DNA of 64,000 bases, from assembly GCF_001677475.2 (NCBI RefSeq), contig NZ_CP015229.1; one strand, given 5' to 3'. Origin of the DNA: Escherichia coli. GTDB lineage: Bacteria > Pseudomonadota > Gammaproteobacteria > Enterobacterales > Enterobacteriaceae. Below are positions 3,103 to 63,930 of the stretch, piece by piece; the stretch's first letter is position 1; each line of letters opens with the position of its first letter. Under the pieces are notes generated by a model, which was not told the DNA's origin, searched no databases, and saw only the letters and a list, made by a program, of their open reading frames with translations. The translations under genes were made by a program, and so were the position numbers.

Positions 3103-3888
3103 ATGTCTTATCAGTATGTGAACGTTGCCACTATCAACAAAGTGGCGGTCATTGAGTTTAACTATGGCCGAAAACTTAATGCCTTAAGTAAAGTCTTTAT
3201 TGATGATCTTATGCAGGCATTAAGCGATCTCAACCGGCCGGAAATTCGCTGTATCATTTTGCGCGCGCCGAGTGGATCCAAAGTCTTCTCCGCAGGTCAC
3301 GATATTCACGAACTGCCGTCTGGCGGTCGCGATCCGCTCTCCTATGATGATCCGTTGCGTCAAATCACCCGCATGATCCAAAAATTCCAGAAACCGATCA
3401 TTTCGATGGTGGAAGGTAGTGTTTGGGGTGGCGCATTTGAAATGATCATGAGTTCCGATCTGATCATCGCCGCCAGTACCTCAACCTTCTCAATGACGCC
3501 TGTAAACCTCGGCGTCCCGTATAACCTGGTCGGCATTCACAACCTGACCCGCGACGCGGGCTTCCACATTGTCAAAGAGCTGATTTTTACCGCTTCGCCA
3601 ATCACCGCCCAGCGCGCGCTGGCTGTCGGCATCCTCAACCATGTTGTGGAAGTGGAAGAACTGGAAGATTTCACCTTACAAATGGCGCACCACATCTCTG
3701 AGAAAGCGCCGTTAGCCATTGCCGTTATCAAAGAAGAGCTGCGTGTACTGGGCGAAGCGCACACCATGAACTCCGATGAATTTGAACGTATTCAGGGGAT
3801 GCGCCGCGCGGTTTATGACAGCGAAGACTACCAGGAAGGGATGAACGCTTTCCTCGAAAAACGTAAACCTAATTTCGTTGGTCATTAA
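3103..3888 (+). CDS. scpB: Methylmalonyl-CoA decarboxylase (crotonase fold)
   Basis: ATG at 3103 preceded by AAAGGA; protein starts MSYQYVNV; the GTG-initiated 14-codon extension in the ORF track was not used. Confidence 0.85.
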   Translation: MSYQYVNVATINKVAVIEFNYGRKLNALSKVFIDDLMQALSDLNRPEIRCIILRAPSGSKVFSAGHDIHELPSGGRDPLSYDDPLRQITRMIQKFQKPIISMVEGSVWGGAFEMIMSSDLIIAASTSTFSMTPVNLGVPYNLVGIHNLTRDAGFHIVKELIFTASPITAQRALAVGILNHVVEVEELEDFTLQMAHHISEKAPLAIAVIKEELRVLGEAHTMNSDEFERIQGMRRAVYDSEDYQEGMNAFLEKRKPNFVGH

Positions 3889-3911: not shown

Positions 3912-5390
3912 ATGGAAACTCAGTGGACAAGGATGACCGCCGATGAAGCGGCAGAAATTATCCAGCATAACGACATGGTGGCATTTAGCGGCTTTACCCC
4001 AGCGGGTTCGCCGAAAGCCTTACCCACCGCGATTGCCCGCAGAGCTAACGAACAGCATGAGGCCAAAAAGCCGTATCAAATTCGCCTGCTGACGGGGGCG
4101 TCAATCAGCGCCGCCGCTGACGATGTACTTTCTGACGCCGATGCTGTTTCCTGGCGTGCGCCATATCAAACATCGTCCGGTTTACGTAAAAAGATCAATC
4201 AGGGCGCGGTGAGTTTCGTTGACCTGCATTTGAGCGAAGTGGCGCAAATGGTCAATTACGGTTTCTTCGGCGACATTGATGTTGCCGTCATTGAAGCATC
4301 GGCACTGGCACCGGATGGTCGAGTCTGGTTAACCAGCGGGATCGGTAATGCGCCTACCTGGCTGCTGCGGGCGAAGAAAGTGATCATTGAACTCAATCAC
4401 TATCACGATCCGCGCGTTGCAGAACTGGCAGATATTGTGATTCCTGGCGCGCCACCGCGGCGCAATAGCGTGTCGATCTTCCATGCAATGGATCGCGTCG
4501 GTACCCGCTATGTGCAAATCGATCCGAAAAAGATTGTCGCCGTCGTGGAAACCAATTTGCCCGACGCCGGTAATATGCTGGATAAGCAAAATCCCATGTG
4601 CCAGCAGATTGCCGATAACGTGGTCACGTTCTTGTTGCAGGAAATGGCGCATGGGCGTATTCCGCCGGAATTTCTGCCGCTGCAAAGTGGCGTGGGCAAT
4701 ATAAATAATGCAGTCATGGCGCGACTAGGGGAAAACCCGGAAATTCCTCCGTTCATGATGTATTCGGAAGTGCTACAGGAATCAGTGGTGCATTTACTGG
4801 AAACGGGCAAAATCAGCGGGGCCAGCGCCTCCAGCCTGACTATCTCGGCCGATTCCCTGCGCAAGATTTACGACAATATGGATTACTTTGCCAGCCGCAT
4901 TGTGTTGCGTCCGCAGGAAATTTCCAATAACCCGGAAATCATCCGTCGTCTGGGCGTCATCGCTCTGAACGTCGGCCTGGAGTTTGATATTTACGGGCAT
5001 GCCAACTCAACACACGTAGCCGGGGTCGATCTGATGAACGGCATCGGCGGCAGCGGTGATTTTGAACGCAACGCGTATCTGTCGATCTTTATGGCCCCGT
5101 CGATTGCTAAAGAAGGCAAGATCTCAACCGTCGTGCCAATGTGCAGCCATGTTGATCACAGCGAACACAGCGTCAAAGTGATCATCACCGAACAAGGGAT
5201 CGCCGATCTGCGCGGTCTTTCCCCGCTTCAACGCGCCCGCACGATCATTGATAATTGTGCACATCCTATGTATCGGGATTATCTGCATCGCTATCTGGAA
5301 AATGCGCCTGGCGGACATATTCACCACGATCTTAGCCACGTCTTCGACTTACACCGTAATTTAATTGCAACCGGCTCGATGCTGGGTTAA
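3912..5390 (+). CDS. scpC: Propionyl-CoA:succinate CoA transferase
   Basis: 492-aa ORF, GGAG RBS upstream, last gene of the scpA operon. Confidence 0.9.
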   Translation: METQWTRMTADEAAEIIQHNDMVAFSGFTPAGSPKALPTAIARRANEQHEAKKPYQIRLLTGASISAAADDVLSDADAVSWRAPYQTSSGLRKKINQGAVSFVDLHLSEVAQMVNYGFFGDIDVAVIEASALAPDGRVWLTSGIGNAPTWLLRAKKVIIELNHYHDPRVAELADIVIPGAPPRRNSVSIFHAMDRVGTRYVQIDPKKIVAVVETNLPDAGNMLDKQNPMCQQIADNVVTFLLQEMAHGRIPPEFLPLQSGVGNINNAVMARLGENPEIPPFMMYSEVLQESVVHLLETGKISGASASSLTISADSLRKIYDNMDYFASRIVLRPQEISNNPEIIRRLGVIALNVGLEFDIYGHANSTHVAGVDLMNGIGGSGDFERNAYLSIFMAPSIAKEGKISTVVPMCSHVDHSEHSVKVIITEQGIADLRGLSPLQRARTIIDNCAHPMYRDYLHRYLENAPGGHIHHDLSHVFDLHRNLIATGSMLG

Positions 5391-45921: not shown

Positions 45922-46511
45922 TGGATAGTTATATCGCGCTTACACTGTTTGGCTGTTTTTTTGTGCTGGTCTTTATTGGTGTGCCCATTTCGTTCTCAAT
46001 CGGTATTGCCACTGTAGCTTCAATGCTGTTGATGTTTCCCTGGGATATCGCGGCAATCACTGTTTCGCAGCGACTGGCTAATGGACTGGATAACTTTGCC
46101 CTATTGGCAATCCCCTTTTTCATCTTTGCCGGAACGCTGATGAACAGCGGCGGTATTGCGATACGTTTGATTAACCTCGCCCAGGTAATGGTTGGCCGCG
46201 TTCCTGGTTCGCTTGGTCATGTGAACGTCCTGGCGAATATGATGTTTGGTTCCATTTCTGGTTCAGCCGTTGCGGCAGCTGCTGCCGTTGGTGGCACACT
46301 GAATCCCATTCAGACCAAAGAAGGTTATGATCCGGCATTTTCTACCGCTGTAAACGTCTCATCCTGTATTACTGGATTACTGATACCGCCCTCAAACGTG
46401 TTAATTGTGTTTTCCCTGACAGCTGGCGGCGTTTCTGTAGCATCGCTATTTATGGCGGGATATTTGCCAGGGATCTTAATGGGTCTCGCGGTAATGGTTG
46501 TCTGCGCGTAA
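45921..46511 (+). pseudogene. TRAP transporter large permease (DctM family), N-terminal fragment cut by IS66 insertion
   Basis: Only ~196 codons of a normally ~430-aa permease; the frame runs into the IS66 left inverted repeat and stops at a TAA inside it (46509-46511). Confidence 0.7.
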
Positions 46512-46592
46512 GCGTAAACCGACCGCCGTATGTAGCCATTAGACAAGAATTGGTAACTTAGACGCCCATCTGACACAGACGGACATCTAAGT

Positions 46593-47012
46593 ATGGAATT
46601 ACAGGACTGGCGAAAAGAACCTCGTAAAAAGTATTCGAATGAATTCAAACTTCGTATGGTTGAACTGGCATCACAACCCGGTGCTTGTGTGGCTCAGATT
46701 GCACGAGAAAATGGCGTCAATGATAATGTTATTTTCAAATGGCTCAGACTCTGGCAAAACGAAGGGCGTATATCACGGCGTCTTCCGGTGACAACCACTT
46801 CTGATGCAGGCCTTGAATTATTACCTGTAGAGATAACCTCTGATGAGCCGAAAGAACCGATGGCTGCTCTTACTCCGCCCTTATCCACTCAGACTACTGT
46901 CAGTGCCAGCTCCTGCAAGGTGGAGTTCCGTCACGGTAACATGACGCTGGAAAATCCTTCACCAGAGCTGCTCACTGTATTGATTCGTGAACTGACCGGG
47001 AGGGGAAGATGA
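46593..47012 (+). CDS. IS66-family accessory protein (orf1, HTH)
   Basis: 139-aa first ORF of the IS66 triplet. Confidence 0.75.
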   Translation: MELQDWRKEPRKKYSNEFKLRMVELASQPGACVAQIARENGVNDNVIFKWLRLWQNEGRISRRLPVTTTSDAGLELLPVEITSDEPKEPMAALTPPLSTQTTVSASSCKVEFRHGNMTLENPSPELLTVLIRELTGRGR

Positions 47013-47359
47013 TCTCACTCCCATCCGGTACCCGTATCTGGCTCGTTGCCGGGATAACCGATATGCGTAAGTCTTTCAACGGGCTGGGTGAACAGGTACA
47101 GCATGTGTTAAATGTTAATCCCTTCTCCGGTCACCTGTTTATCTTCCGTGGCCGACGGGGTGACACCGTTAAAATTCTTTGGGCTGATGCTGATGGTCTG
47201 TGCCTGTTCACCAAACGCCTGGAGGAAGGCCAGTTTATCTGGCCTGCGGTGCGTGACGGTAAGGTATCCATTACCCGCTCGCAACTGGCAATGCTCCTCG
47301 ATAAGCTGGACTGGCGTCAGCCAAAAACATCCCGCCTTAACGCCCTGACAATGTTGTAA
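47009..47359 (+). CDS. IS66-family accessory protein (orf2)
   Basis: 116-aa ORF overlapping orf1 by 4 bp. Confidence 0.75.
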   Translation: MISLPSGTRIWLVAGITDMRKSFNGLGEQVQHVLNVNPFSGHLFIFRGRRGDTVKILWADADGLCLFTKRLEEGQFIWPAVRDGKVSITRSQLAMLLDKLDWRQPKTSRLNALTML

Positions 47360-47389
47360 AAAACGCCTGGCCGCATTATAAAAACGGCC

Positions 47390-48982
47390 ATGAGTCAGAA
47401 ATACCTCATTCGCATTGCAGAACTGGAAAGCCAGCTCCGTCAGAAAGACCAGCAACTGAGTCTGGTTGAAGAGACGGAGGCCTTCCTGCGCTCTGCACTG
47501 GCACGTGCCGAAGAAAAGATCGAAGAAGATGAACGGGAAATAGAACATCTGCGGGCTCAGATAGAAAAACTGCGCCGGATGCTGTTCGGTACCCGTTCTG
47601 AAAAACTGCGTCGTGAAGTTGAACAGGCTGAGGCCCTGCTGAAACAACGCGAACAGGACAGCGATCGTTACAGTGGGCGGGAAGACGATCCACAGGTTCC
47701 CCGCCAGTTGCGACAGTCGCGCCATCGTCGTCCGTTACCGGCACACCTTCCCCGTGAAATACACCGTCTGGAGTCTGAAGAAAGTTGTTGCCCGGAATGT
47801 GGCGGCGAGCTGGATTATCTGGGGGAAGTCAGTACTGAGCAGCTGGAACTGGTGAGCAGCGCCCTGAAAGTGATCCGCACAGAACGGGTAAAAAAAGCCT
47901 GTACAAAATGTGACTGCATCATTGAAGCACCGGCGCCGTCCCGCCCGATAGAGCGTGGTATCGCGGGCCCCGGATTACTTGCCCGCGTGTTAACGGGAAA
48001 ATACTGCGAACACCTGCCACTGTATCGTCAGAGTGAAATCTTTGCCCGACAGGGTGTCGAACTGAGCCGTGCATTACTCTCCAACTGGGTTGACGCGTGC
48101 TGCCAGTTAATGATGCCGCTGAATGATGCCCTGTACCGTTATGTGATGAATACCCGCAAGCTTCACACTGACGACACACCGGTAAAGGTACTGGCACCGG
48201 GCTTGAAAAAGACGAAAACAGGGCGCATCTGGACGTATGTCCGGGATGATCGCAATGCGGGTTCGTCATCTCCTCCGGCGGTCTGGTTCGCGTACTCACC
48301 GAACCGGCAGGGGAAACACCCGGAGCAACACCTCCGCCCCTTCCGGGGTATCCTGCAGGCGGATGCGTTCACAGGTTATGACAGGCTGTTCAGTGCAGAA
48401 CGTGAAGGTGGTGCGCTGACAGAAGTTGCGTGCTGGGCCCATGCCCGGAGAAAAATCCACGATGTATACATCAGCAGCAAAAGTGCGACGGCAGAAGAAG
48501 CCCTGAAGCGAATCAGTGAACTGTACGCCATCGAGGATGAAATACGGGGATTACCAGAGTCAGAGCGTCTTGCAGTCAGACAGCAGCGAAGCAAAGCGTT
48601 ACTGACGTCGCTGCATGAATGGATGGTGGAGAAGAATGGCACGCTGTCGAAAAAATCCAGACTGGGCGAAGCGTTCAGCTATGTACTGAATCAGTGGGAC
48701 GCCCTCTGTTATTACAGTGATGACGGACTGGCGGAGACGGACAATAACACAGCGGAAAGAGCGCTTCGTGCAGTCTGTCTTGGAAAGAAAAATTACGTGT
48801 TCTTCGGTAGCGATCACGGTGGCGAGCGTGGTGCACTGCTATACGGGCTGATCGGCACCTGCCGTCTGAACGGTATCGATCCGGAAGCGTATCTGCGCCA
48901 TATTCTGAGCGTACTGCCGGAATGGCCCTCCAACCGTGTTGACGAACTCCTGCCATGGAACGTGGTTCTCACCAATAAATAA
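47390..48982 (+). CDS. IS66-family transposase (orf3)
   Basis: 530-aa ORF with N-terminal coiled coil, CxxC zinc region and DDE-type core. Confidence 0.8.
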   Translation: MSQKYLIRIAELESQLRQKDQQLSLVEETEAFLRSALARAEEKIEEDEREIEHLRAQIEKLRRMLFGTRSEKLRREVEQAEALLKQREQDSDRYSGREDDPQVPRQLRQSRHRRPLPAHLPREIHRLESEESCCPECGGELDYLGEVSTEQLELVSSALKVIRTERVKKACTKCDCIIEAPAPSRPIERGIAGPGLLARVLTGKYCEHLPLYRQSEIFARQGVELSRALLSNWVDACCQLMMPLNDALYRYVMNTRKLHTDDTPVKVLAPGLKKTKTGRIWTYVRDDRNAGSSSPPAVWFAYSPNRQGKHPEQHLRPFRGILQADAFTGYDRLFSAEREGGALTEVACWAHARRKIHDVYISSKSATAEEALKRISELYAIEDEIRGLPESERLAVRQQRSKALLTSLHEWMVEKNGTLSKKSRLGEAFSYVLNQWDALCYYSDDGLAETDNNTAERALRAVCLGKKNYVFFGSDHGGERGALLYGLIGTCRLNGIDPEAYLRHILSVLPEWPSNRVDELLPWNVVLTNK

Positions 48983-49012
48983 GCGTCAATACGGTGCTCC
49001 GTTGACGCTTAC

Positions 49013-49624
49013 GGCCAGCGATACATACTGAGAACCTTTATCACTGTGATGGATTGTGCCGGACGGCCGACGGGCCCACAACGCCTGCTCCAGTGCATCC
49101 AGCACGAATGTTGTTTCCATGGATGATGAGACCTGCCATCCCACGATGTATCCGGCGAACACATCAATGATGAACGCCACATAAACGAAGCCCTGCCATG
49201 TGCTTACCCAGGTAAAATCAGCCACCCACAACTGGTCTGGACGTTCTGCCACGAACTGACGGTTTACGCGGTCGCATGCGGCAACGGCTTTCCGGCTGAC
49301 GGTAGTGCGGACCTTTTTACCCCGGAGAACACCGGCAAGTCCCATAACTGCCATGAGACGTGCCACAGTGCATCTGGCCACTCTGATACCTTCCCGTAAC
49401 AACTGACGCCAGACTTTACGCACACCGTATACCTGGTGATTTTCATCGTATACGCGCTGTATCTCTTTCTTCAGCCAGTCATCGTGCTGCGCACGGGCAC
49501 TGCGTTTATCCGGATGATGTCGCTGTTGCTGACAATGGTAATACGTTGACGGGGCAATATGCAGTTCGCTGCATACCGGTCCGACCCCGTACTGCTCACG
49601 CAGCTTATCCAGCAGTGGCATCAT
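49013..49624 (-). pseudogene. IS3-family transposase OrfB, 3'-truncated
   Basis: About 200 of ~296 expected codons; the frame terminates inside the abutting IS66 sequence. Confidence 0.7.
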
Positions 49625-54755: not shown

Positions 54756-56954
54756 CTACTGAAGGTGTTTCTGCAGCCAGATGCACGTTCCTTTTATATC
54801 ATACGCCTGTGCCCCATACCCTTTAGCAAGCAAAGTCTCTGGTAAATACTCGTCATATTTATCCAGATACTTGTCGGGAACAACTGCAGCAAGCTCAAAC
54901 TCTGAAGGTAGCCCCGACAATAGCATTTTCTTAAGTGCACGCTGGACAGAGGCAACGCCTGAGTCCTCTACCTCTATCACACCTGCAAATGAACTGGCTT
55001 TAAAGCCACAACGTATAATCAGGGACGTAATTGTATTGACAATTTTATCCCCCATCCACGGGATCACGTAGCAGTTCTGACCACTGGCAATAAAACAGTC
55101 ATTTTGTAGATTGTAGCGTTGGAAGTTGTCACTTCCTTCCGCGAAGAGGCTTCTGGCTGCGGCATCAGCATAATCGACTCTCTTGTTGCCTACCGCGATA
55201 CGGTAATCATTTTCCCTGTAGATAGTGAGCATTTCCTGGCGAACAACATCATGAACAGACATCCCGGTACCACTGAATAGTGGCGGCTGACCGCCTTTAG
55301 TCGTCTCAACATAGATAACCTTTTTTTCAACCTCGATCTCTGTCACTTTCCAGCGCCGTCCGCCGAAGATGATGTGCTGCTCCGGCAAAAGTGGGGAGTC
55401 TACAGGCACTGTGCCAAGAGTTCGGTTTCCCGTTACAATGCGAAACTCCTCAGGTGTATTGAATACGGCATAAAACGTGTAGTGATTAGTCAGCTTCTCC
55501 CCCTCAGCCCCGACAACTATTTCACCGCTGGTTAGTTGAGTGAGCAGGCCACATGTCCCCATATGTTTAAGCAGACTTTTGAAGTCATTTATATCCACAT
55601 TCCGGAACGGACCTGTCTGGCAAAGTTGTGACCAGAGCTGATCGGCACGAACACCTCCCCATTGCGCAGTAATAGCCAGGATCTGGTGTAGTAGTGTGGA
55701 GTAATGTTTCTGCCGGATATCTGCAGGCTCGAACCAGCGCTTAGAGATCATCAACCTGATCATTGCCATCGCCTGAACCAACTGCAGCCGTAAATGATCC
55801 ACAATGCTGCTGGTTGCGGTAAGTTCAGGTTCAGTAATTAACATTCTCAGCACCGATGGGGAATCGCGCCGCCCTGAACGTCCCATGCGTTGACGCAGAC
55901 TGGAAACAGAATGCGGAGGTGTCACTTGTATGACAGACTGCACCTTACCAATATCAATACCCAGCTCCAGCGTCATTGTACAAACAGCGGTTGTGGGCAA
56001 ATTCCCTTTCTGCAGTCGGGCTTCAAGCGCCTCACGCAACTCCCTTGCAAGGGAACCATGATGAGGAAAGAATTCATTAGGAACGACATTTGCTTCACAC
56101 ATGTCGCTCAGTGTTGCCGCTATGCTTTCAGTACGCTTTCGACTGTTAGCAAAGACCAGGTGGGAATCGCCACGGCAGAGCCTGAAAATATCCGCGCAGA
56201 CGAGCTGTTCAGCAGAGCTCTGGAGCTCTTCTCCTTTTTCGGGCACCCGCTCAAGATAACCTTTAACCTGAACCTGTAGTGTGGCTTTGCTATTACTGTC
56301 TGTTACCGTTTCACAAGGTAATCTCTTATCCGGGCGCAATAGTTCTGGTACTTTTTCCAGCTCTCCCAGCGTGGCACTCAACGCGACACGGGGAACTGGA
56401 TTCAACTGGCGTCCCAGCACATGGTCAATTCTGTTAAGCAGAGAAAGCAGCTGTATACCACGCTCTGAGCCAATAAAAGCATGGAACTCATCAATAACAA
56501 TGTATGCCACAGAAGAAAACGCCTGTTTGAGCCAACCCAATGAGTTTATGAGCAAAGACTCAAGTGATTCAGGTGTGATAAGTAAGATGCCAGAAGGGGT
56601 TGTCCGTGCTTTCTTCTTTTTGCTTTGTGGTACATCCCCGTGCCAGGGCGTCACTTGCATTTCCAGGGCTTCACCAAGACTCTCAAGACGACGGTGTTGA
56701 TCGTTAATTAATGCCTTCAATGGACTGATATAGATAATGCCAAATCCACCAGTGAGATCTGCAATCGCTGAACAGGCAGGAAGAAAGAAAGCCTCTGTTT
56801 TACCCGCAGCTGTACCTGCACTAATTAGTACATCACGATCACGGGCTAAAATTGCCGGAATAGAGCTTTCCTGCAAGGGCCTTAAGGATGACCAGCCCTG
56901 CTTATAAACCCACTTACGGACACGGGGATCAAGACTATTGTAGGCACTACTCAT
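54756..56954 (-). CDS. DEAD/DEAH-box (Lhr-like) helicase; third gene of the candidate defence operon (SngC-like)
   Basis: 732-aa ORF with helicase motifs: Q (LRPLQ), I (AGTAAGKTEAF), II (DEFHAF), III (SAT), VI (QRMGRSGRR); overlaps the upstream ATPase gene by 4 bp. Confidence 0.8.
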   Translation of the reverse strand: MSSAYNSLDPRVRKWVYKQGWSSLRPLQESSIPAILARDRDVLISAGTAAGKTEAFFLPACSAIADLTGGFGIIYISPLKALINDQHRRLESLGEALEMQVTPWHGDVPQSKKKKARTTPSGILLITPESLESLLINSLGWLKQAFSSVAYIVIDEFHAFIGSERGIQLLSLLNRIDHVLGRQLNPVPRVALSATLGELEKVPELLRPDKRLPCETVTDSNSKATLQVQVKGYLERVPEKGEELQSSAEQLVCADIFRLCRGDSHLVFANSRKRTESIAATLSDMCEANVVPNEFFPHHGSLARELREALEARLQKGNLPTTAVCTMTLELGIDIGKVQSVIQVTPPHSVSSLRQRMGRSGRRDSPSVLRMLITEPELTATSSIVDHLRLQLVQAMAMIRLMISKRWFEPADIRQKHYSTLLHQILAITAQWGGVRADQLWSQLCQTGPFRNVDINDFKSLLKHMGTCGLLTQLTSGEIVVGAEGEKLTNHYTFYAVFNTPEEFRIVTGNRTLGTVPVDSPLLPEQHIIFGGRRWKVTEIEVEKKVIYVETTKGGQPPLFSGTGMSVHDVVRQEMLTIYRENDYRIAVGNKRVDYADAAARSLFAEGSDNFQRYNLQNDCFIASGQNCYVIPWMGDKIVNTITSLIIRCGFKASSFAGVIEVEDSGVASVQRALKKMLLSGLPSEFELAAVVPDKYLDKYDEYLPETLLAKGYGAQAYDIKGTCIWLQKHLQ

Positions 56955-58267
56955 AATCTGAAATTCGCCAGGCCATCATCGTCATCACTTTCCTCCACAA
57001 TGGCATCATCCATATCGCTGAGCTTGTCTTCTTCAATCGCCACCCCCTCAATGAGGGTTTGCCAGTTCATCGTTCTGTTTTGTTCCAGCACAGCCAGCAT
57101 ATCCAGAAAACCTTTTATGGTATTGCGGGGAGTTCGAAAGTAAGCATCTCCGATGGTTTTGCTGCAGTGATGCAGAAACCCGGTCAGAGCATCATCTGGC
57201 ACCAGATAATTTGCGGGATCTCCACCAGCATAAACATGACGAAGGTTTTTCAGTAAAATATACAGTTCCTCAGGAGTGAGGCTGGCAAGATGCAGCGTGG
57301 GGGACGAGTAGTCAATCACGCCAGCTTTCTGTGCGAATCGGTTTTCTGCCAGACGCGACTGGAGCGCTTCATAGCTGTAGAGCCCCTTACGTGGATCGAA
57401 AAGAAATTCTGGCGTCCCCCCGAGGATAAAACCAATATTTTCGGCGGAGCCTTGCAGGCAGTCATTCAGGATCCGCAAAATTTGTTCGTAGTTGGCCGTT
57501 CTCGCTTGCGTATTATTCAACTTGAAGAGGTTCACCATCTCGTCGAGGCTAACTAAAAGTCCGGCATAGCCTGCCTGACGGACAAAAAGGCTCATCAACT
57601 TCAAAGAATCATAGAACGAGGCGTCTGAGATAATCGTTCGGACGTCAAGATCATTACGGGCATCAGTTTTTGTGGTGTACTCGCCCCGCAACCAGCGAAT
57701 AGCATTGGATTTTAAGGTTTCGTTATCCTGCTCATGCCCGCGCCAGAATGCGTCAATGACCTTCGCAAAGTCATATCCTCCCACCATATCTGACAAAGCA
57801 GCAAGGCGTTTATGAATAACGGATGAGACCAGGGAGCCGTTCGCATCAGCTTCCTTCCTTGCCTCAGTAACAAACCTTTCCACAACGCTAAGTAATGCAT
57901 TGCCATCTGGTTTGTTTCTGGTGGACATATTTTTCATAAGCTCTGAGTAGAGATTACGAGCCTGACCTCCCGATGAGTGGATACGTCTGTCGGGAGAAAG
58001 GTCTGCACTGACCGTGACCAGCTTCTTCTCTAACGCAATAGACCGTACAACACTTAAAAAGAATGTTTTCCCGGAACCGTACTCACCAATGATAAGTCTG
58101 AAGCTTGCCCCGCCATCAGCAATCCGTTCAATATCCTGATGGAGGGCGGTTATCTCATTCACGCGGCCAACCTGGATATGCTGAATACCTATTCTTGGCG
58201 TTACTCCCGACTTAAGTGACTGAATGATAGCGTCGCGCTCTTTCACTCTTATACGTGTTACAGACAT
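56951..58267 (-). CDS. P-loop ATPase; second gene of the candidate defence operon (SngB-like)
   Basis: 438-aa ORF with Walker A GEYGSGKT and Walker B-like LLVSLDE; 3 bp from the upstream gene stop. Confidence 0.75.
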   Translation of the reverse strand: MSVTRIRVKERDAIIQSLKSGVTPRIGIQHIQVGRVNEITALHQDIERIADGGASFRLIIGEYGSGKTFFLSVVRSIALEKKLVTVSADLSPDRRIHSSGGQARNLYSELMKNMSTRNKPDGNALLSVVERFVTEARKEADANGSLVSSVIHKRLAALSDMVGGYDFAKVIDAFWRGHEQDNETLKSNAIRWLRGEYTTKTDARNDLDVRTIISDASFYDSLKLMSLFVRQAGYAGLLVSLDEMVNLFKLNNTQARTANYEQILRILNDCLQGSAENIGFILGGTPEFLFDPRKGLYSYEALQSRLAENRFAQKAGVIDYSSPTLHLASLTPEELYILLKNLRHVYAGGDPANYLVPDDALTGFLHHCSKTIGDAYFRTPRNTIKGFLDMLAVLEQNRTMNWQTLIEGVAIEEDKLSDMDDAIVEESDDDDGLANFRL

Positions 58268-58270
58268 TCA

Positions 58271-60580
58271 CTAACCCTCTAATTCTTTGGCTATTTCCAG
58301 GTCAATCCAAATGTGATCATCAGCATCTTCCAGCACTGGTGCATCAACCACCGCATAGGACCAATCGTTAATCACCTCAAGCGCACCGCCGAGCATCAGG
58401 TTCCAGTTACTACACAACTCTGTCGCCTCTTTTCTGGACCATTGTTCTTTCTCCAGCAACCTGCGATAAAGTTGGCTATGAGCGGAGTCAAGTCCCCCTT
58501 CCCCGGTTAATGAGGCTGGAGCGCTTTCTGGTTGTTCTGGTTCTTCTTCAGTGAAAATTGAGTTCAGTAATTTACGAACATCATCAGTGGCAGATTCGTG
58601 GCGGGCAAGTACGTTGGCATCCAGCGTAAACCCTGCCGTCGACTGATTAGCTGGTACAGATGAAACGAGAGCAGTTTCAGTTGCGGAATGCTGATGGATA
58701 TTGCTTGATACGGATGAGGGATCCAGTCCCAGGCTTGTATAAATCTTCTCAAGCTGTTTGATTTCGGCAGGCGTAATTCTGCCGTCAGAGCAAGCGACAC
58801 TAACGATAACCTTACCCACAGCTGATTTTTCCGCTGCACCGAGTAATTCAATCCGGCTTTTCATTCCCGTCATATTCGCCGGAGTATGAAGCTGCCACGT
58901 TAAATATGCGTGCAGAGAGCGCTTTTCATCATCGCTGAAGCTGGCATTGTTGTTGATGGCATTCTCAAGCACTTTCTGTTCGGCTTGATCGAGAGAATTG
59001 TCAATCAAGGCGACTACCGAACCTAATCGGAGCGTCAATACAGCTGTGATAAATTCAGGAGAAGGTGAGAAACGTCCTCTTTCACCAGCAGGGAATAAAA
59101 CAAGTACACCATCGACATCTGCCTTTACGTGGTGGTGATAGGGGTCAGGAGCCAGACAGTATCCCATTTTCTGTGCAAAGGCTTGCATTAAGTCGGCCTC
59201 TTTTTTATTGATCTTCGCCGGACAGGTGGCATTCATATGTGACCAGTAGTCAGCAACTGAAACTATCCCACCCTTACTGCGGATTGCGTCATCAGCCCAG
59301 TGTTTGAATGTACTTAATATTTTTTCTGCGCTTTCGTTAACGATTTCTGAAGGCAGCAACAAAATTGCAGCGGTATCATTTGCTGAAGTACCTTTTCTAC
59401 CAAGGTAACGACTGTAAGCATCCAGTTCACCTGTGCATATATCGGCAATGGCCATAAGCTTCTGAACAGGGCCTTTCAATGCACCTGGATCAGGCAAGTC
59501 GGGAACAGGAAGCCGAATACCTCGCAAACTGGGACTTGCAGGCGTGTAATCTAAACGCAGACGCGCTTTATTCGGCTTCACTACCATCCCTTCACCGTAT
59601 TTAAGGGTGTAACGCCGTTTAAATAGTGCAGCAAATTCTTTCGCACAGCGGCGGGCGGGGGTTCGTAATGAGTATTCAGCATGGTTTGTCACCCACGTCA
59701 GAGCCAGATCCGCTGGAACCGGGGCTCCTGTATCAACAGTCTTTGCCAGGATTAACCTGAACTGCATGCTATTGCTGAACTCCGAATCATCGTTGAGAGC
59801 TGCTGCAAGATTTTCGTTCGGACGAAGAATGGACATCGCTTCAAGTAACTGGGATGAGTAATTCCGGAAAGATCGGTTTTCATTGAAAACCGATCTGAGA
59901 CGGCAGATCTCTTTGAAAAGAGAATAGAACTCATCGTCGGATATATTGTTGTCCCTGCTGTCAACAAGCGCCCTTCTTTCCAGACCATACAGATAAATGA
60001 AAACGTAACCAATTGGGCAGGAAGTGTCGCATCTGTCGCTGGCAAGCCAACTCAGGTACGCACCACGAGCTTCAGGTGAAAGTGAGGAAAAACTGGGCCA
60101 ATACCCTAATGAACTATCTTCGTAAATGTAAGGTGTGGGGGATATTTTAAGCGTGTCGTCAACTAGCGATGCCTCGTTATTGCCATCATAATAACCGCCT
60201 GAGTTATGCCCGGCAGGTTTCATACGCTGCCCAAGATAGAAGTGACCGCCGGTAACCTCTATCCCACTGACTGTGATCATCTCTCCCGGAAAAATCCAAC
60301 GAGCCAAAGCACCGGTAGTTTTTGAGAAATTCTGGCGTTGAGTGGCTGTTATGCTGTATTCGACATTCCGCCCGCCACTTAGTGTAAACGTAGCCAGATT
60401 GTCATCTTCGCTGTCCTCGTTTTGCATTACAGACTGATTTTTTTTGTTGTTAGCAAGCCATTCTTTAGGTGGTGCTTTCACAGGAGCGGAAGTATAAGAG
60501 CCCGCGGACTTAGTTTTCTTCTTTTTGAAAAAAAGAATATAAATCAAATAAATAGCTACTATAAATATCCATAACTCCAT
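58271..60580 (-). CDS. Membrane-anchored protein with TerB-like motif; first gene of the candidate defence operon (SngA-like)
   Basis: 769-aa ORF; N-terminal hydrophobic helix (ELWIFIVAIYLIYILFF) then KKKK; internal segment VIVSVACSDGRITPAEIKQLEKI resembles the TerB-type xxADGxxxxxExxxL helix. Confidence 0.6.
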   Translation of the reverse strand: MELWIFIVAIYLIYILFFKKKKTKSAGSYTSAPVKAPPKEWLANNKKNQSVMQNEDSEDDNLATFTLSGGRNVEYSITATQRQNFSKTTGALARWIFPGEMITVSGIEVTGGHFYLGQRMKPAGHNSGGYYDGNNEASLVDDTLKISPTPYIYEDSSLGYWPSFSSLSPEARGAYLSWLASDRCDTSCPIGYVFIYLYGLERRALVDSRDNNISDDEFYSLFKEICRLRSVFNENRSFRNYSSQLLEAMSILRPNENLAAALNDDSEFSNSMQFRLILAKTVDTGAPVPADLALTWVTNHAEYSLRTPARRCAKEFAALFKRRYTLKYGEGMVVKPNKARLRLDYTPASPSLRGIRLPVPDLPDPGALKGPVQKLMAIADICTGELDAYSRYLGRKGTSANDTAAILLLPSEIVNESAEKILSTFKHWADDAIRSKGGIVSVADYWSHMNATCPAKINKKEADLMQAFAQKMGYCLAPDPYHHHVKADVDGVLVLFPAGERGRFSPSPEFITAVLTLRLGSVVALIDNSLDQAEQKVLENAINNNASFSDDEKRSLHAYLTWQLHTPANMTGMKSRIELLGAAEKSAVGKVIVSVACSDGRITPAEIKQLEKIYTSLGLDPSSVSSNIHQHSATETALVSSVPANQSTAGFTLDANVLARHESATDDVRKLLNSIFTEEEPEQPESAPASLTGEGGLDSAHSQLYRRLLEKEQWSRKEATELCSNWNLMLGGALEVINDWSYAVVDAPVLEDADDHIWIDLEIAKELEG

Positions 60581-60780
60581 GAGGCAGTAACCTTAAAAAT
60601 AGCTTTTCACGCACACCAAAAAGGATGACGATGGGAAGTGGATTAATCTCAAAATAATACTTCTAAATTAAAAAGGTTAAAAGCAAATCACAACCTTCCT
60701 GAGCTTCCGCTTTTCTCTTTCAGAGGGCTGAAGTCGTTATCTGTAACCAGAGGAGATCAGTAGCCCGTTATGCCAGCTAA

Positions 60781-60881
60781 AGCACTCCGGGCAGATTGCC
60801 CGGAGTGCTTAATATTTTAATGGATTGTTAATCTTCGCATACTCAAAGGGGCTGGTATTTTCTTTCGAGTTTGTATCCAGA
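60781..60881 (-). repeat. Hairpin plus remnant of a gene 3' end, homologous to the sequence at 63904-64000
   Basis: 13-bp perfect stem agcactccgggca/tgcccggagtgct; the following 67 bp align at ~75-80% identity with 63934-64000; minus-strand translation ...SPFEYAKINNPLKY* versus ...SPFEYAKINNPLKQ*. Confidence 0.5.
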
Positions 60882-61100
60882 AAATCCCCCCACCACTGTA
60901 GCATCAACCGACGCTATTCCAGGTGTTCTGTTTTATGGATATAAGCCGCCCTTAATGAATTACGTTCCATGTGGCTCATCTGACGTTCAGCCGCTTTATC
61001 TCGTGCTGTTTTGGTCTTAATACTTCCATGCCGCTGCGATTACCTCTTAAACCCGCCCTTACCATTTTTATGGGTACGATAAGAAAACTTTATCGGGCAC

Positions 61101-61126
61101 GATCGATTTTATCGATCGATTCGATC
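61101..61126. promoter_or_regulatory. Cluster of three GATC (Dam) sites in a palindromic tract upstream of the outer-membrane protein gene
   Basis: cacGATCgattttatcGATCgattcGATCgaaaac; GATC at 61101, 61114, 61123; ~95-115 bp upstream of the ATG at 61218. Confidence 0.3.
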
Positions 61127-61217
61127 GAAAACATTCCTTTTACCCTATCTTTTGCATGGTTTTAGAATGAGCAACCCCATTTATCGTTCGGGGAAAGTGA
61201 TAGCGGAGATGATTGAA

Positions 61218-61958
61218 ATGAATAAGGTTATTGCGGTTTCAGCGCTTGCCATGGCAGGCATGTTTTCGACCCAGGCTCTGGCTGATGAGAGCAAAACAGG
61301 CTTTTATGTGACCGGTAAAGCAGGTGCTTCTGTTATGTCACTTGCAGACGAGCGTTTCCTGTCGGGTGATGGAGAGGAAACATCAAAATATAAAGGCGGT
61401 GATGGCCATGATACGGTATTCAGTGGCGGTATCGCGGCCGGTTATGATTTTTACCCGCAGTTCAGTATTCCGGTTCGTACGGAACTGGAGTTTTACGCTC
61501 GTGGAAAAGCTGATTCGAAGTATAACGTAGATAAAGACAGCTGGTCAGGCGGTTACTGGCGTGATGACCTGAAGAATGAGGTGTCAGTCAACACACTGAT
61601 GCTGAATGCGTACTATGACTTCCGGAATGACAGTGCATTCACACCATGGGTATCTGCAGGGATTGGCTACGCCAGAATTCACCAGAAAACAACCGGTATC
61701 AGTACCTGGGATTATGGGTACGGAAGCAGTGGTCGCGAATCGTTGTCACGTTCAGGCTCTGCTGACAACTTCGCATGGAGCCTTGGCGCGGGTGTCCGCT
61801 ATGACGTAACCCCGGATATCGCTCTGGACCTCAGCTATCGCTATCTTGATGCAGGTGACAGCAGTGTGAGTTACAAGGACGAGTGGGGCGATAAATATAA
61901 ATCAGAAGTTGATGTTAAAAGTCATGACATCATGCTTGGTGTGACTTATAACTTCTGA
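61218..61958 (+). CDS. Outer-membrane beta-barrel protein (family unassigned)
   Basis: ATG at 61218; signal peptide MNKVIAVSALAMAGMFSTQALA; alternating aromatic/hydrophobic strands; C-terminal ...VTYNF. Confidence 0.6.
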   Translation: MNKVIAVSALAMAGMFSTQALADESKTGFYVTGKAGASVMSLADERFLSGDGEETSKYKGGDGHDTVFSGGIAAGYDFYPQFSIPVRTELEFYARGKADSKYNVDKDSWSGGYWRDDLKNEVSVNTLMLNAYYDFRNDSAFTPWVSAGIGYARIHQKTTGISTWDYGYGSSGRESLSRSGSADNFAWSLGAGVRYDVTPDIALDLSYRYLDAGDSSVSYKDEWGDKYKSEVDVKSHDIMLGVTYNF

Positions 61959-62109
61959 CAAAACTGCTCCTGAAAGATAATAATTACCCATCTTCTGTAA
62001 TTAAACGAAGACTCCCTGCAGTAATTATACTGCAGGGTTGTTTGTTATCTGTTTCACAGGAGACTTCTGATTTTTATTCTCTTCACAATAATGTTGTCGA
62101 TATACTCCG

Positions 62110-63609
62110 ATGAATATCAGAAAGCTGTTTTATACGGACAATATATCCCGGATTTTATTGTTTTTATTCTTCCCGGGCATGTGTGTAATAACCACTGCCG
62201 CATGCGGATACACTGAGAAGAATGCCACCGGGAATGTGTTGCTGCTGTTTCTCCTTCTGATTCTTGCACACAGAAATACCCTTACATCCATTACAGCTCT
62301 GTTATTTCTGTTCTGTTGTGCACTGTATGCACCTGTCGGTATGACGTACGGAAAAATCAACAACAGTTTTATTGTCGCGTTGTTGCAGACCACGGCGGAT
62401 GAGGCTGCGGAGTTTACCGGGATGATTCCTGTTTATCATTTTCTGGTCAGTGCCGCGATTCTGGTGTTCATGGTTATTTTCTGGCGGACACACCACCGTG
62501 GTCAACGTAACGCGATGGCTCTGTTGTTATTCGTATTATGCTCTGTAAACAGCTGGCCGTTACGGATGGTTAAAGGAACAGTTGTGGGGACAACTGACAC
62601 ATTGCGTGAAATGCAGCGTTATGAACAACTGAGTCGGCACGGTGCTGACAGCTGGAAAATCCTGCCGGGAGCACCATTATATGACACGATTGTTATTGTT
62701 ACTGGTGAGAGTGTCCGCAGGGATTATATGTCGGTATATGGTTATCCCGAGCCAACCACACCATGGCTGAATACGGCTCCCGGTTTATTTATTGACGGTT
62801 ATACATCGGCAGCAGCCAGCACCGTGCCTTCCCTGAGCCGGACACTGATTTATGACTATGAGCAGAACCCTGATTCCGGCAACAACGTGGTGGCGCTGGC
62901 AGCAAAAGCAGGATACAGCACATGGTGGATATCCAATCAGGGAAAACTGGGAGAGCATGACACACGCATCTCTGTTATTGCTTCTGATGCGGACCATACT
63001 GTTTTCCTCAAGAAAGGCAGCTTTGCTTCCCGTAAAACGGATGACATGTTGTTGTTACAGGAAACAGAACGTGCGCTGGCAGATACATCCACTCCGAAGG
63101 TGATTTTCCTGCACATGATGGGGTCTCATCCGAACCCGTGTGATCGGCTTCACTCCTGGCAGAATAATTACCTGGAGCAGTATTCCCGAAAAATTGCCTG
63201 TTATCTTGCCAGCATCAGTAAACTGGATAACTTTCTTGGTCAGCTTGATGGTATCCTTCGCCGACACTCACGTCATTTCGCCATGCTTTACTTTTCTGAC
63301 CATGGGCTGTCGGTCAGCGACAGTGCTAATCCTGTTCATCATGATGGTCATGTGCAGGGAGGCTACAGCGTGCCCCTGATTATTACCGCCAGTGATATAA
63401 CCTCTCATCAGTCCCTCAGCAGAAAAATCAGTGCCCGTCATTTCACAGGTATTTTTCAGTGGCTGACCGGTATTCGTACCGAAAATATACCGCCATTCAA
63501 TCCACTGACAGACGAAGATAATGAACGCATTATGGTTTTTAACGGAGAGAGGTATGTACAGGAAGACAGTCTGAAACCGCAGCCGCTTATTCTTCCGGAC
63601 CACAGGTAA
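62110..63609 (+). CDS. Phosphoethanolamine-transferase-like membrane protein (sulfatase / alkaline-phosphatase superfamily)
   Basis: 499-aa ORF with N-terminal TM helices and the sulfatase-type segment IVIVTGESVRRDYMSVYGYP. Confidence 0.6.
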   Translation: MNIRKLFYTDNISRILLFLFFPGMCVITTAACGYTEKNATGNVLLLFLLLILAHRNTLTSITALLFLFCCALYAPVGMTYGKINNSFIVALLQTTADEAAEFTGMIPVYHFLVSAAILVFMVIFWRTHHRGQRNAMALLLFVLCSVNSWPLRMVKGTVVGTTDTLREMQRYEQLSRHGADSWKILPGAPLYDTIVIVTGESVRRDYMSVYGYPEPTTPWLNTAPGLFIDGYTSAAASTVPSLSRTLIYDYEQNPDSGNNVVALAAKAGYSTWWISNQGKLGEHDTRISVIASDADHTVFLKKGSFASRKTDDMLLLQETERALADTSTPKVIFLHMMGSHPNPCDRLHSWQNNYLEQYSRKIACYLASISKLDNFLGQLDGILRRHSRHFAMLYFSDHGLSVSDSANPVHHDGHVQGGYSVPLIITASDITSHQSLSRKISARHFTGIFQWLTGIRTENIPPFNPLTDEDNERIMVFNGERYVQEDSLKPQPLILPDHR

Positions 63610-63930
63610 TCATATATGGCAAACTGTAATACAGTTGCTTGTACTGAAAAGTATTCTGTATAAAACAGAATCCGTATTCATATCAGCACAAGGGACCACC
63701 AAATCCCGGCAGTATTCCTTACGTCAGTTATCCCGCATCACTCTGTGAGTGAGTTTTTTTATGAGGTTACTTTTTCATTGAATATAAATAATGAATAACC
63801 GCAGATTCTGATAATCCTCCTCCAGGGAACAATCAGGTAAACAGTAAATACATCAGTTAATACCATTTTGTCTTTTTAACAAAGAAAATATTCATGGAGT
63901 AAGTTCCCGGGCATTTGCCCGGGATGATTA

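Follow-up and report, generated by a model that had tools for sequence, protein, structure and literature searches.

Near the end of the window, by which we mean the whole 64,000-nucleotide stretch of Escherichia coli DNA analyzed here, a gene for an outer-membrane beta-barrel precedes one for a membrane enzyme of the phosphoethanolamine-transferase type, and the question that this locus raises is whether the two act together on the cell surface or are neighbors with separate roles. Both open reading frames are present as an earlier note on this DNA had described them, on the same strand with a 151-nt gap, and hundreds of complete, nearly identical E. coli genomes have them annotated as ‘outer membrane protein’ and ‘phosphoethanolamine transferase’, so that they are not chance ORFs. 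The features of the locus are:

60809..60994, minus strand: pseudogene that retains the 3′ part of a second integrase gene of the P4 type, just upstream of hra1
61101..61126, no strand assigned: three Dam (GATC) sites in 26 bp, GATCGATTTTATCGATCGATTCGATC, 95-117 nt upstream of the hra1 ATG
61218..61958, plus strand: hra1, 246 aa (247 codons with the stop), 8-stranded outer-membrane beta-barrel adhesin of the Hra/Hek/Hes/Tia family
62014..62047, plus strand: intergenic hairpin with a 10-bp stem (6 GC pairs) and a 4-nt loop, followed by TTGTTTGTTA; intrinsic-terminator-like (terminator scan)
62110..63609, plus strand: intact gene for a yjgX-type phosphoethanolamine transferase, 499 aa, with about 5 N-terminal TM helices and a periplasmic alkaline-phosphatase-fold domain
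63928..64000, minus strand: intact gene for a P4-type tyrosine integrase, of which the window includes only the 3′ end; it converges with the transferase gene

The barrel gene and its relatives

The first product had been described as a secreted beta-barrel with a C-terminal Phe, and this is what is found: the N-terminus (MNKVIAVSALAMAGMFSTQALA, followed by DESK) is signal-peptide-like, the C-terminus reads ...GVTYNF with Phe as the last residue, and the protein matches Pfam OMP_b-brl at 8e-24. The AF2 model (pLDDT 88) has 8 strands, and its fold matches are NspA, OmpA-TM, Ail, and OmpX. At 244 of 246 residues the product is identical to that of an E. coli 042 gene (record 3390633-3391373), from which it differs by the substitutions E45Q and L189F. 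The 042 coordinates FN554766.1:c3390633-3391424 are those of hra1 in the supplement to PMC5539235, and the hra1 cloning primer of that study matches window positions 61167-61188 exactly. By these matches the barrel gene is hra1 (heat-resistant agglutinin 1), and its product is the known adhesin and autoagglutinin Hra1 and no anonymous porin. The window allele agrees with Hra1 of enteroaggregative E. coli 042 in gene, locus, length, signal peptide, 8-stranded barrel, and C-terminal Phe, only the two substitutions setting it apart, and it also has the long surface loops that, with these features, mark a member of the Hra family. The older annotation places the start of hra1 at ATG 61167, giving a product of 263 aa, while a start at ATG 61218, which has a GGAG at a distance of 9 nt before it, yields a normal signal peptide.

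The product also shares 67% identity with a protein that bears the name ‘invasion outer membrane protein Tia’, and Tia, together with Hra1, Hek, Hes, and Hra2, makes up the Hra family. The long surface loops of this family have been published as mediating hemagglutination, autoaggregation, biofilm formation, and adherence. Hemagglutination, autoaggregation, and adherence are known for 042 Hra1, Hek, and Hes (PMC5539235, PMC8286834), and hes introduced into HB101 leads to agglutination and autoaggregation (PMC5539235).

The transferase and its assignment

The second product had been called a membrane enzyme of the sulfatase/alkaline-phosphatase superfamily and of the phosphoethanolamine-transferase type, and at this level the description is borne out. 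The protein matches Pfam Sulfatase at 2.2e-36, with TIVIVTGES at residues 193-201, and it has five hydrophobic segments between residues 15 and 154 that are helices in the AF2 model as well (pLDDT 90), although the match to Pfam EptA_B_N is weak (20.9 bits vs a cut-off of 22.3). The fold matches of the model are EcEptC, MCR-1, NmEptA, and CjEptC, the best being EptC, with a target-normalized Foldseek TM-score of 0.74 to the periplasmic domain of EcEptC, and E. coli EptC is also the best PDB sequence match (1.8e-18). The catalytic residues, whose loss the earlier note had named as telling against such an enzyme, are all in place: Glu200, Thr238, His340, Asp397, and His398 are invariant in an alignment with K-12 EptA, EptB, EptC, OpgE, and YhbX, and among 42 homologs the first three are invariant and Asp397 and His398 are at least 90% conserved. 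Sequence and model together provide the catalytic-domain fold, the Thr nucleophile with metal ligands and His, and the multi-helix N-terminal membrane domain of a phosphoethanolamine transferase.

The further claim, that the enzyme is typical of the lipid A and core transferases, finds no support at the subfamily level, where its scores lie far under the curated NCBIfam cut-offs. These are 111 vs 404 and 88.7 vs 900 bits for CptA, 61.6 vs 561 and 41.4 vs 660 bits for the EptA equivalogs, 49.3 vs 493 bits for EptB, and 19-32 bits vs at least 1075 for the MCR models. The HMM classification of both proteins that had been called for thus upholds the broad family calls and reaches no EptA, EptB, or EptC (CptA) cut-off. 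The fold and the set of Thr nucleophile and metal ligands are those of EptC/CptA, EptA/MCR, and EptB, but identity to these enzymes is 20-22% (22% to K-12 EptC), the NCBIfam scores are 4- to 16-fold under the cut-offs, and the window transferase is shorter by 40-80 residues. The closest K-12 paralog, and the nearest that is characterized, is OpgE, at 35% identity, which is similar in size (527 vs 499 aa), in its short N-terminal membrane domain, and in its catalytic residues. OpgE (YbiP) decorates osmoregulated periplasmic glucans rather than LPS, and some sources label relatives of the window transferase ‘glucan phosphoethanolaminetransferase’, but 35% identity is too low for acceptor specificity to be transferred. 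The gene for OpgE is, moreover, a core-genome gene convergent with ompX, whereas the window gene stands in tandem behind its OMP gene, and the strain's own opgE is presumably located elsewhere in the genome. An origin of the pair by paralogous duplication of the ompX-opgE neighborhood was considered and rejected, as the similarity of Hra1 to OmpX is confined to a motif of 25 residues (E = 3e-4) and the genes are oriented differently. A closest relative in the S. flexneri O-antigen transferase Lpt-O was likewise rejected, since relatives on small plasmids of the size of the Lpt-O plasmid are only 28-29% identical, less than OpgE.

The transferase aligns with the K-12 pseudogene yjgX (b4575) at 89% amino acid and 91% nucleotide identity over the part that K-12 retains, which identifies it as the intact, orthologous form of that gene. 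Like the window copy, K-12 yjgX lies beside a P4-type integrase gene at a tRNA gene (next to intB, in the cryptic element at leuX), but it lacks its first ~313 nt, is frameshifted, adjoins IS2, and has no hra gene by it. Matches of the yjgX type occur in 2728 of 5426 complete E. coli genomes, with up to five copies per genome. Our literature search found no paper that characterizes YjgX and no report of its acceptor substrate.

These assignments suggest how the two products would work. Hra1 would be exported by means of its signal peptide and form an 8-stranded barrel in the outer membrane, and YjgX would be an inner-membrane enzyme with ~5 TM helices whose periplasmic, metal-dependent domain carries a complete Thr-nucleophile and Zn-ligand site. 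From this site we infer, by analogy with its family, that YjgX may transfer phosphoethanolamine from phosphatidylethanolamine to some periplasmic or envelope acceptor.

The island cassette and its distribution

Positions 60600-64000 of the window are 99.8-99.9% identical to 042 and CEA224S, in both of which the gene order is int′ remnant, hra1, ept, int, tRNA-Phe, yqgA. The flanks of hra1 in 042 are thus like those in the window, with the integrase remnant, transferase gene, integrase gene, and pheV, and in near-identical genomes tRNA-Phe (pheV) and yqgA come after the intact integrase gene. RefSeq annotates the position equivalent to the remnant in 042 and CEA224S as ‘integrase, internal stop, missing N-terminus’. 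This remnant is part of a direct repeat of 199 nt (78% identical), whose other copy falls at the 3′ end of the intact integrase gene, and it is this repeat, made up of integrase 3′ ends, that flanks the pair. The pair is an integrase-proximal cargo cassette of a tRNA-Phe (pheV)-type E. coli island, and transferases of the YjgX/YhbX type have been found at every pheU, pheV, and selC insertion analyzed in PMC6174562. A similar arrangement is that of module I of the LAA pathogenicity island (pheV-int-sisA-‘sulfatase’-hes), in which a sulfatase-family gene of ~1.5 kb near the pheV integrase gene likewise directly follows an Hra-family gene, and the hes strain 94-3024 matches the two-gene unit of the window at 90.7%. 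LAA differs in having sisA between the integrase and transferase genes and hes in place of hra1, and the rest of the window island, with Shango, ibrAB, and IS elements, is also unlike LAA. A self-contained int-ept-hra1 mini-island with its own att was rejected, as the 23-nt direct repeat of LAA (the 3′ end of pheV) has no match in the window with up to 3 mismatches. In 60500-64000, a scan against Rfam gave no match at E ≤ 1.

The two-gene unit is present in 1302 of the 5426 complete genomes, in which hra alone was scored in 1329 and ept alone in 1448, where a match had to cover at least 80% of the query in one place and the counts are of genomes, not of independent events. About 98% of full-length hra genes lie beside a full-length yjgX, and the pair is kept with Hra1, Hes, and Tia-like alleles. 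A Salmonella island carries a co-diverged pair (53% identity for the OMP and 57% for the transferase) in the same order and with ~213-nt spacing. There is, however, no adjacent yjgX at the hra2-like, P0077, Providencia, and other alleles, more distant yjgX homologs have no OMP neighbor, and many genomes hold a yjgX remnant without hra. Both genes are ordinary, already-catalogued E. coli island cargo, and the result re-identifies a published colonization factor, hra1, and an annotated accessory enzyme, and adds nothing unexpected. Transferases of the yjgX type are very widespread, show purifying selection, and in nearly all cases accompany an Hra-family adhesin.

Transcription, function, and a possible switch

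The hairpin between the two genes bears on whether the cassette is an operon. The RNA fold of 61995-62060 has an energy of -24.3 kcal/mol (z = -5.7, and none of 200 shuffles reached this stability), and the hairpin recurs in the tia-like locus L004 with a single mismatch in the stem. That so strong and conserved a hairpin, with its T-run, stands between the genes makes co-transcription doubtful and, as read from the sequence, argues against a simple joint transcript, although it may be a leaky or regulatory element and not a complete terminator. Promoter-like sites between hra1 and the transferase gene are no commoner than in shuffles.

We infer that the two genes of the pheV-island cassette, hra1 and intact yjgX, which travel as a unit, are probably separate transcription units and functionally independent. 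Besides the hairpin and T-run, this reading draws on the hra alleles that lack yjgX, on the yjgX homologs that lack an OMP neighbor, and on the phenotypes that Hra-family genes confer in K-12-derived hosts, yjgX being present only as a truncated pseudogene in MG1655, the sole K-12-derived genome checked. Against independence stands the near one-to-one linkage in E. coli, which is stronger than simple hitch-hiking requires, and the co-diverged Salmonella pair, with its same order and spacing, leaves room for a functional tie. One such tie would be that YjgX is a dedicated partner of the Hra adhesin, decorating its loops or adjacent glycans with phosphoethanolamine to tune self-association, much as PptA acts on pilin and C. 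jejuni EptC on FlgG. The retention of the pair across alleles and in Salmonella, the purifying selection on the transferase, and the protein targets known for its family are all in keeping with this proposal, but the linkage may reflect one recently spread module, yjgX has been lost beside several hra alleles, and Hra-family genes expressed by themselves in K-12-derived hosts still bring about their phenotypes; we regard it as very unlikely.

The earlier note had proposed that the pair alters LPS, phage adsorption, or peptide resistance, which as an operon would mean adding phosphoethanolamine to lipid A or core along with a new barrel and so changing phage adsorption or resistance to cationic peptides, and for this we found no link. 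The genes are on the same strand and close together, the transferase site is intact, many members of the family act on lipid A or core (PMC10525099), and the Shango anti-phage system adjoins the cassette. We nevertheless consider the proposal unlikely, given the terminator-like hairpin, the scores far under the EptA, EptB, CptA, and MCR cut-offs, and a nearest characterized paralog, OpgE, that is no LPS enzyme. The barrel is a known adhesin, and a PADLOC scan gave no defense-model match for either protein. In a defensin screen, deletion of yjgX in K-12 proved to be a false positive, which is weak evidence as the K-12 gene is a pseudogene. That the transferase gene is instead a decaying passenger without function, as in K-12, would accord with its poor Shine-Dalgarno sequence and with the 5′-truncated copy (query positions ~314-1500) that is the only one in K-12 and more than a thousand other genomes. 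It is extremely unlikely for the window copy, which is full length with all catalytic residues present, and in 1448 genomes 80% or more of the gene is still there. The dN/dS of 0.18 at a dS of 0.21, from comparison with the diverged full-length copy beside a tia-like allele, indicates that the gene is under purifying selection.

Upstream of hra1, the triple-GATC block is a candidate site for a methylation-sensitive regulator, resembling the core of the OxyR/Dam switch of agn43. If it acted as such, the cassette could be one phase-variable surface-remodeling unit, in which a Dam/OxyR-type switch of hra1 and read-through of a leaky terminator into yjgX would place phosphoethanolamine on the adhesin or nearby envelope glycans and tune self-association or antigenicity, a scheme that we consider highly improbable as a whole. 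Our literature search turned up no relevant report on regulation of hra, hek, or tia by Dam or OxyR. The block itself, with its 13/9-bp spacing, precedes all the island-borne Hra-family alleles that were checked in E. coli and Salmonella and is missing from three homologs that are more distant, and it matches the K-12 agn43 regulatory region at 20-23 of 30 core positions. This shared cluster of agn43-like Dam sites would make epigenetic ON/OFF control of the Hra adhesin family directly testable. The window has a single occurrence of the pattern GATCGNTTNNNNCGATC, against 0.01 expected, and among the loci fetched this pattern is found only at agn43 and upstream of hra-family genes.

Identity of the adhesin and transferase genes

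The two genes of the pair lie in tandem on the plus strand:

61218-61958 (+): hra1, outer membrane protein ORF, 246 aa
62110-63609 (+): phosphoethanolamine transferase ORF, 499 aa

Both ORFs are present where the earlier note had placed them, and its family-level calls of an outer membrane barrel and a Sulfatase-family enzyme were right, as the first product matches Pfam OMP_b-brl (8e-24) and the second carries TIVIVTGES at residues 193-201 and matches Pfam Sulfatase (2.2e-36), with a sub-threshold match to EptA_B_N. The barrel protein is Hra1. It has a signal-peptide-like N-terminus (MNKVIAVSALAMAGMFSTQALA followed by DESK) and ends in TYNF, and it is identical at 244 of 246 residues to the protein encoded at this locus in E. 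coli 042 (record 3390633-3391373). A supplementary entry of Montero et al. (2017) reads 'hra1, FN554766.1:c3390633-3391424, E. coli 042' (PMC5539235), and these coordinates are those of the 042 homologue with an older upstream start; window positions 61167-61188 are, in addition, an exact match to the hra1 cloning primer of that study. Hra1 is 67% identical to a relative named 'invasion outer membrane protein Tia', and its AlphaFold model (pLDDT 88.3, from 38 homologues) shows eight long strands and has fold matches to NspA, the OmpA transmembrane domain, Ail and OmpX. In published work, members of the Hra family (Hra1, Hek, Hes, Hra2, Tia) mediate haemagglutination, autoaggregation, biofilm formation, adherence or invasion (PMC5539235, PMC8286834).

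The 499-aa protein is intact yjgX. The K-12 pseudogene is 91% identical to it in nucleotides and 89% in amino acids, but adjoins intB at leuX without a hra gene and is missing its first ~313 nt, whereas the window copy is intact. Identities to the five K-12 paralogues in our alignment are 35% (OpgE), 26% (YhbX), 22% (EptC), 21% (EptB) and 20% (EptA). Loss of the catalytic residues would have told against a transferase, and they are kept: Glu200, Thr238, His340, Asp397 and His398 are invariant among these paralogues and align with MCR-1 Glu246, Thr285, His395, Asp465 and His466 (HMMER alignment). Five hydrophobic segments fall within residues 15-154, and the model (pLDDT 90.1) has the EcEptC periplasmic domain as its best fold match (TM 0.74), with further matches to full-length MCR-1 and NmEptA. 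The NCBIfam scores fall far short of the curated cut-offs for CptA (111 vs 404), EptA (62 vs 561), EptB (49 vs 493) and the MCR models (19-32 vs at least 1075), and hence the protein does not classify with the LPS-type subfamilies. Taken together, the catalytic residues, fold and family scores make it a bona fide superfamily member that belongs to none of the subfamilies with a known acceptor. The dN/dS of 0.18 (dS 0.21) relative to the copy beside a tia-like allele indicates that the gene is functional. Our literature search found no paper characterizing the yjgX transferase; for K-12 yjgX it turned up no more than a false-positive call in a defensin screen and use as an engineering integration site.

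The proposal that the pair alters LPS, and thereby phage adsorption or antimicrobial-peptide resistance, thus finds no support, as the enzyme is not of LPS type, the barrel is a known adhesin, and neither protein matches a model in the defense-model scan. The locus is ordinary, already catalogued island cargo.

The closest K-12 core-genome paralogue of the transferase gene, opgE, likewise adjoins an 8-stranded-barrel gene, ompX (L020, K-12 850450-852597); those genes are in convergent and not tandem orientation, and the similarity between Hra1 and OmpX is confined to a short motif. Another paralogue (511 aa, 52% identity to the transferase) lies beside a DUF2569 gene on more than 100 plasmids (L021/L022; plasmid matches H43-H72), mostly from E. 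coli and mostly conjugative, and on the plasmid contig L021 its neighbors include DotM, exclusion-determinant and hok/gef genes.

A triple-GATC block upstream of hra1

61101-61126: triple Dam-site block GATCGATTTTATCGATCGATTCGATC, three GATC in 26 bp, 95-117 nt upstream of hra1

Each of the island-borne Hra-family alleles checked, from E. coli and Salmonella, has this block upstream with its 13/9-bp spacing unchanged, although the flanks diverge (L001/L003 20502; L004, the tia-like locus, 5884; L014 5875; L027 4890; L026, a Salmonella island, 3944; L009 5875); three more distant homologues lack it. A conserved ACGATAA motif lies ~22 nt farther upstream. The block resembles the core of the agn43 OxyR/Dam switch, with 20-23 of 30 positions matching the K-12 agn43 regulatory region around GATC-II/GATC-III. 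The 64-kb window contains a single copy of the pattern GATCGNTTNNNNCGATC (0.01 expected), and in a set of 33 loci this pattern was confined to agn43 and the upstream regions of hra-family genes; three GATC within 30 bp are otherwise present in the window only at 3444-3462, 5180-5205 and 37836-37862. No account of Dam/OxyR control was found for hra, hek or tia in the literature searched. The block may be an epigenetic phase-variation site, which we regard as a lead and not a demonstration.

Linkage, transcription and adhesin gene mosaicism

Matches to the pair among 5426 complete E. coli genomes (any match; at least 80% of the query covered in one place)
hra gene, 741 nt: 1669; 1329
Transferase gene, 1500 nt: 2728; 1448
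Two-gene unit, 2392 nt: 2879; 1302

A full-length copy of either gene almost always has the other next to it, although the counts are of genomes and not of independent events. In the Salmonella island L026 the pair has co-diverged (53% identity for the outer membrane protein, 57% for the transferase) with its order kept and a gap of ~213 nt. This gap (L026 4789-5000) has an A9 run and a C11 run immediately upstream of the transferase start codon, tracts that could allow slipped-strand ON/OFF switching. Linkage is not universal: a four-gene block that contains WYL separates the hra2-like allele from a downstream YhbX-type paralogue, there are YhbX-like fragments at best downstream of another Salmonella allele, and no transferase lies beside the P0077 allele, the Providencia homologue or the other homologues inspected. 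Conversely, transferase homologues of 52% identity or less, on an IncI-type plasmid and in Erwinia and Enterobacter lignolyticus, have no outer membrane protein neighbor.

The 151-nt gap between hra1 and the transferase gene reads CCCTGCAG-TAAT-TATACTGCAGGG, then TTGTTTGTTA, and forms as RNA a hairpin of -24.3 kcal/mol (z = -5.7) that the tia-like locus also preserves; the gap is no richer in promoter-like matches than shuffled sequence. A hairpin of this strength and conservation favors transcription that would be separate or only partly coupled. Since hes alone confers agglutination and autoaggregation on HB101 (PMC5539235), and MG1655, the only K-12 genome checked, has just the truncated yjgX pseudogene, the Hra-family adhesin appears to be independent of the transferase.

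Between the window (61218-62110) and the tia-like locus (L004 6001-6909) amino acid identity is 67% for the outer membrane protein and 93% for the transferase, with dS of 0.94 and 0.21 for the respective genes. The adhesin gene is mosaic: its first three quarters are deeply diverged, whereas the last ~60 codons and the intergenic region with its hairpin are nearly identical, a contrast that points to allele replacement within a conserved cassette and indicates a recombination breakpoint inside the adhesin gene.

Island context

54756-60580 (-): three genes divergent from hra1, matching PADLOC Shango anti-phage models
within it (-): SngA match, TerB_N/TerB/TerB_C protein, 769 aa, 2.5e-99
within it (-): SngB match, BrxC/D-type ATPase, 438 aa, 8.7e-187
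within it (-): SngC match, DEAD-box helicase, 732 aa, 4.6e-278

Over the 3.4 kb that hold the pair, identity to many complete E. coli chromosomes is 99.8-99.9%, and the two genes are annotated there as 'outer membrane protein' and 'phosphoethanolamine transferase'. In the E. coli genomes 042 and CEA224S the order is the Shango-like triad (-), an integrase 3' remnant, hra1, the transferase gene, an intact P4-type integrase gene (-), tRNA-Phe (pheV) and yqgA. A 199-nt direct repeat, 78% identical (60796-60994 and 63915-64000), brackets the pair and represents the 3' ends of the degraded and the intact integrase genes, respectively, and looks like the outcome of islands accreting in tandem and a later deletion; no internal pheV 3' end or att repeat was found in the window, including between the repeat copies. 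The STEC LAA island follows the same logic (pheV-int-sisA-yhbX fragment-'sulfatase' (1503 nt)-hes), and in a survey of insertions at pheU, pheV and selC no analyzed site lacked a transferase of the YjgX or YhbX type (PMC6174562).

The stretch at 60601-60780 (180 nt), upstream of the SngA gene, is ~88% identical to several hundred Klebsiella and Salmonella plasmids from which the rest of the region is absent, which suggests that Shango on plasmids shares this promoter or module boundary. Farther away, 42937-49624 holds, in order, hemW, a TRAP transporter (dctP, dctQ and a dctM truncated at 196 aa), IS66 and an IS3-type fragment, and pheV-island content. Identity to other E. coli is 97.9% over the hemW-TRAP part, and the junction is covered by 0 of 5426 complete genomes. 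The island is oriented relative to hemW opposite to 042 and CEA224S, suggesting an IS-mediated inversion or rearrangement in the window strain.
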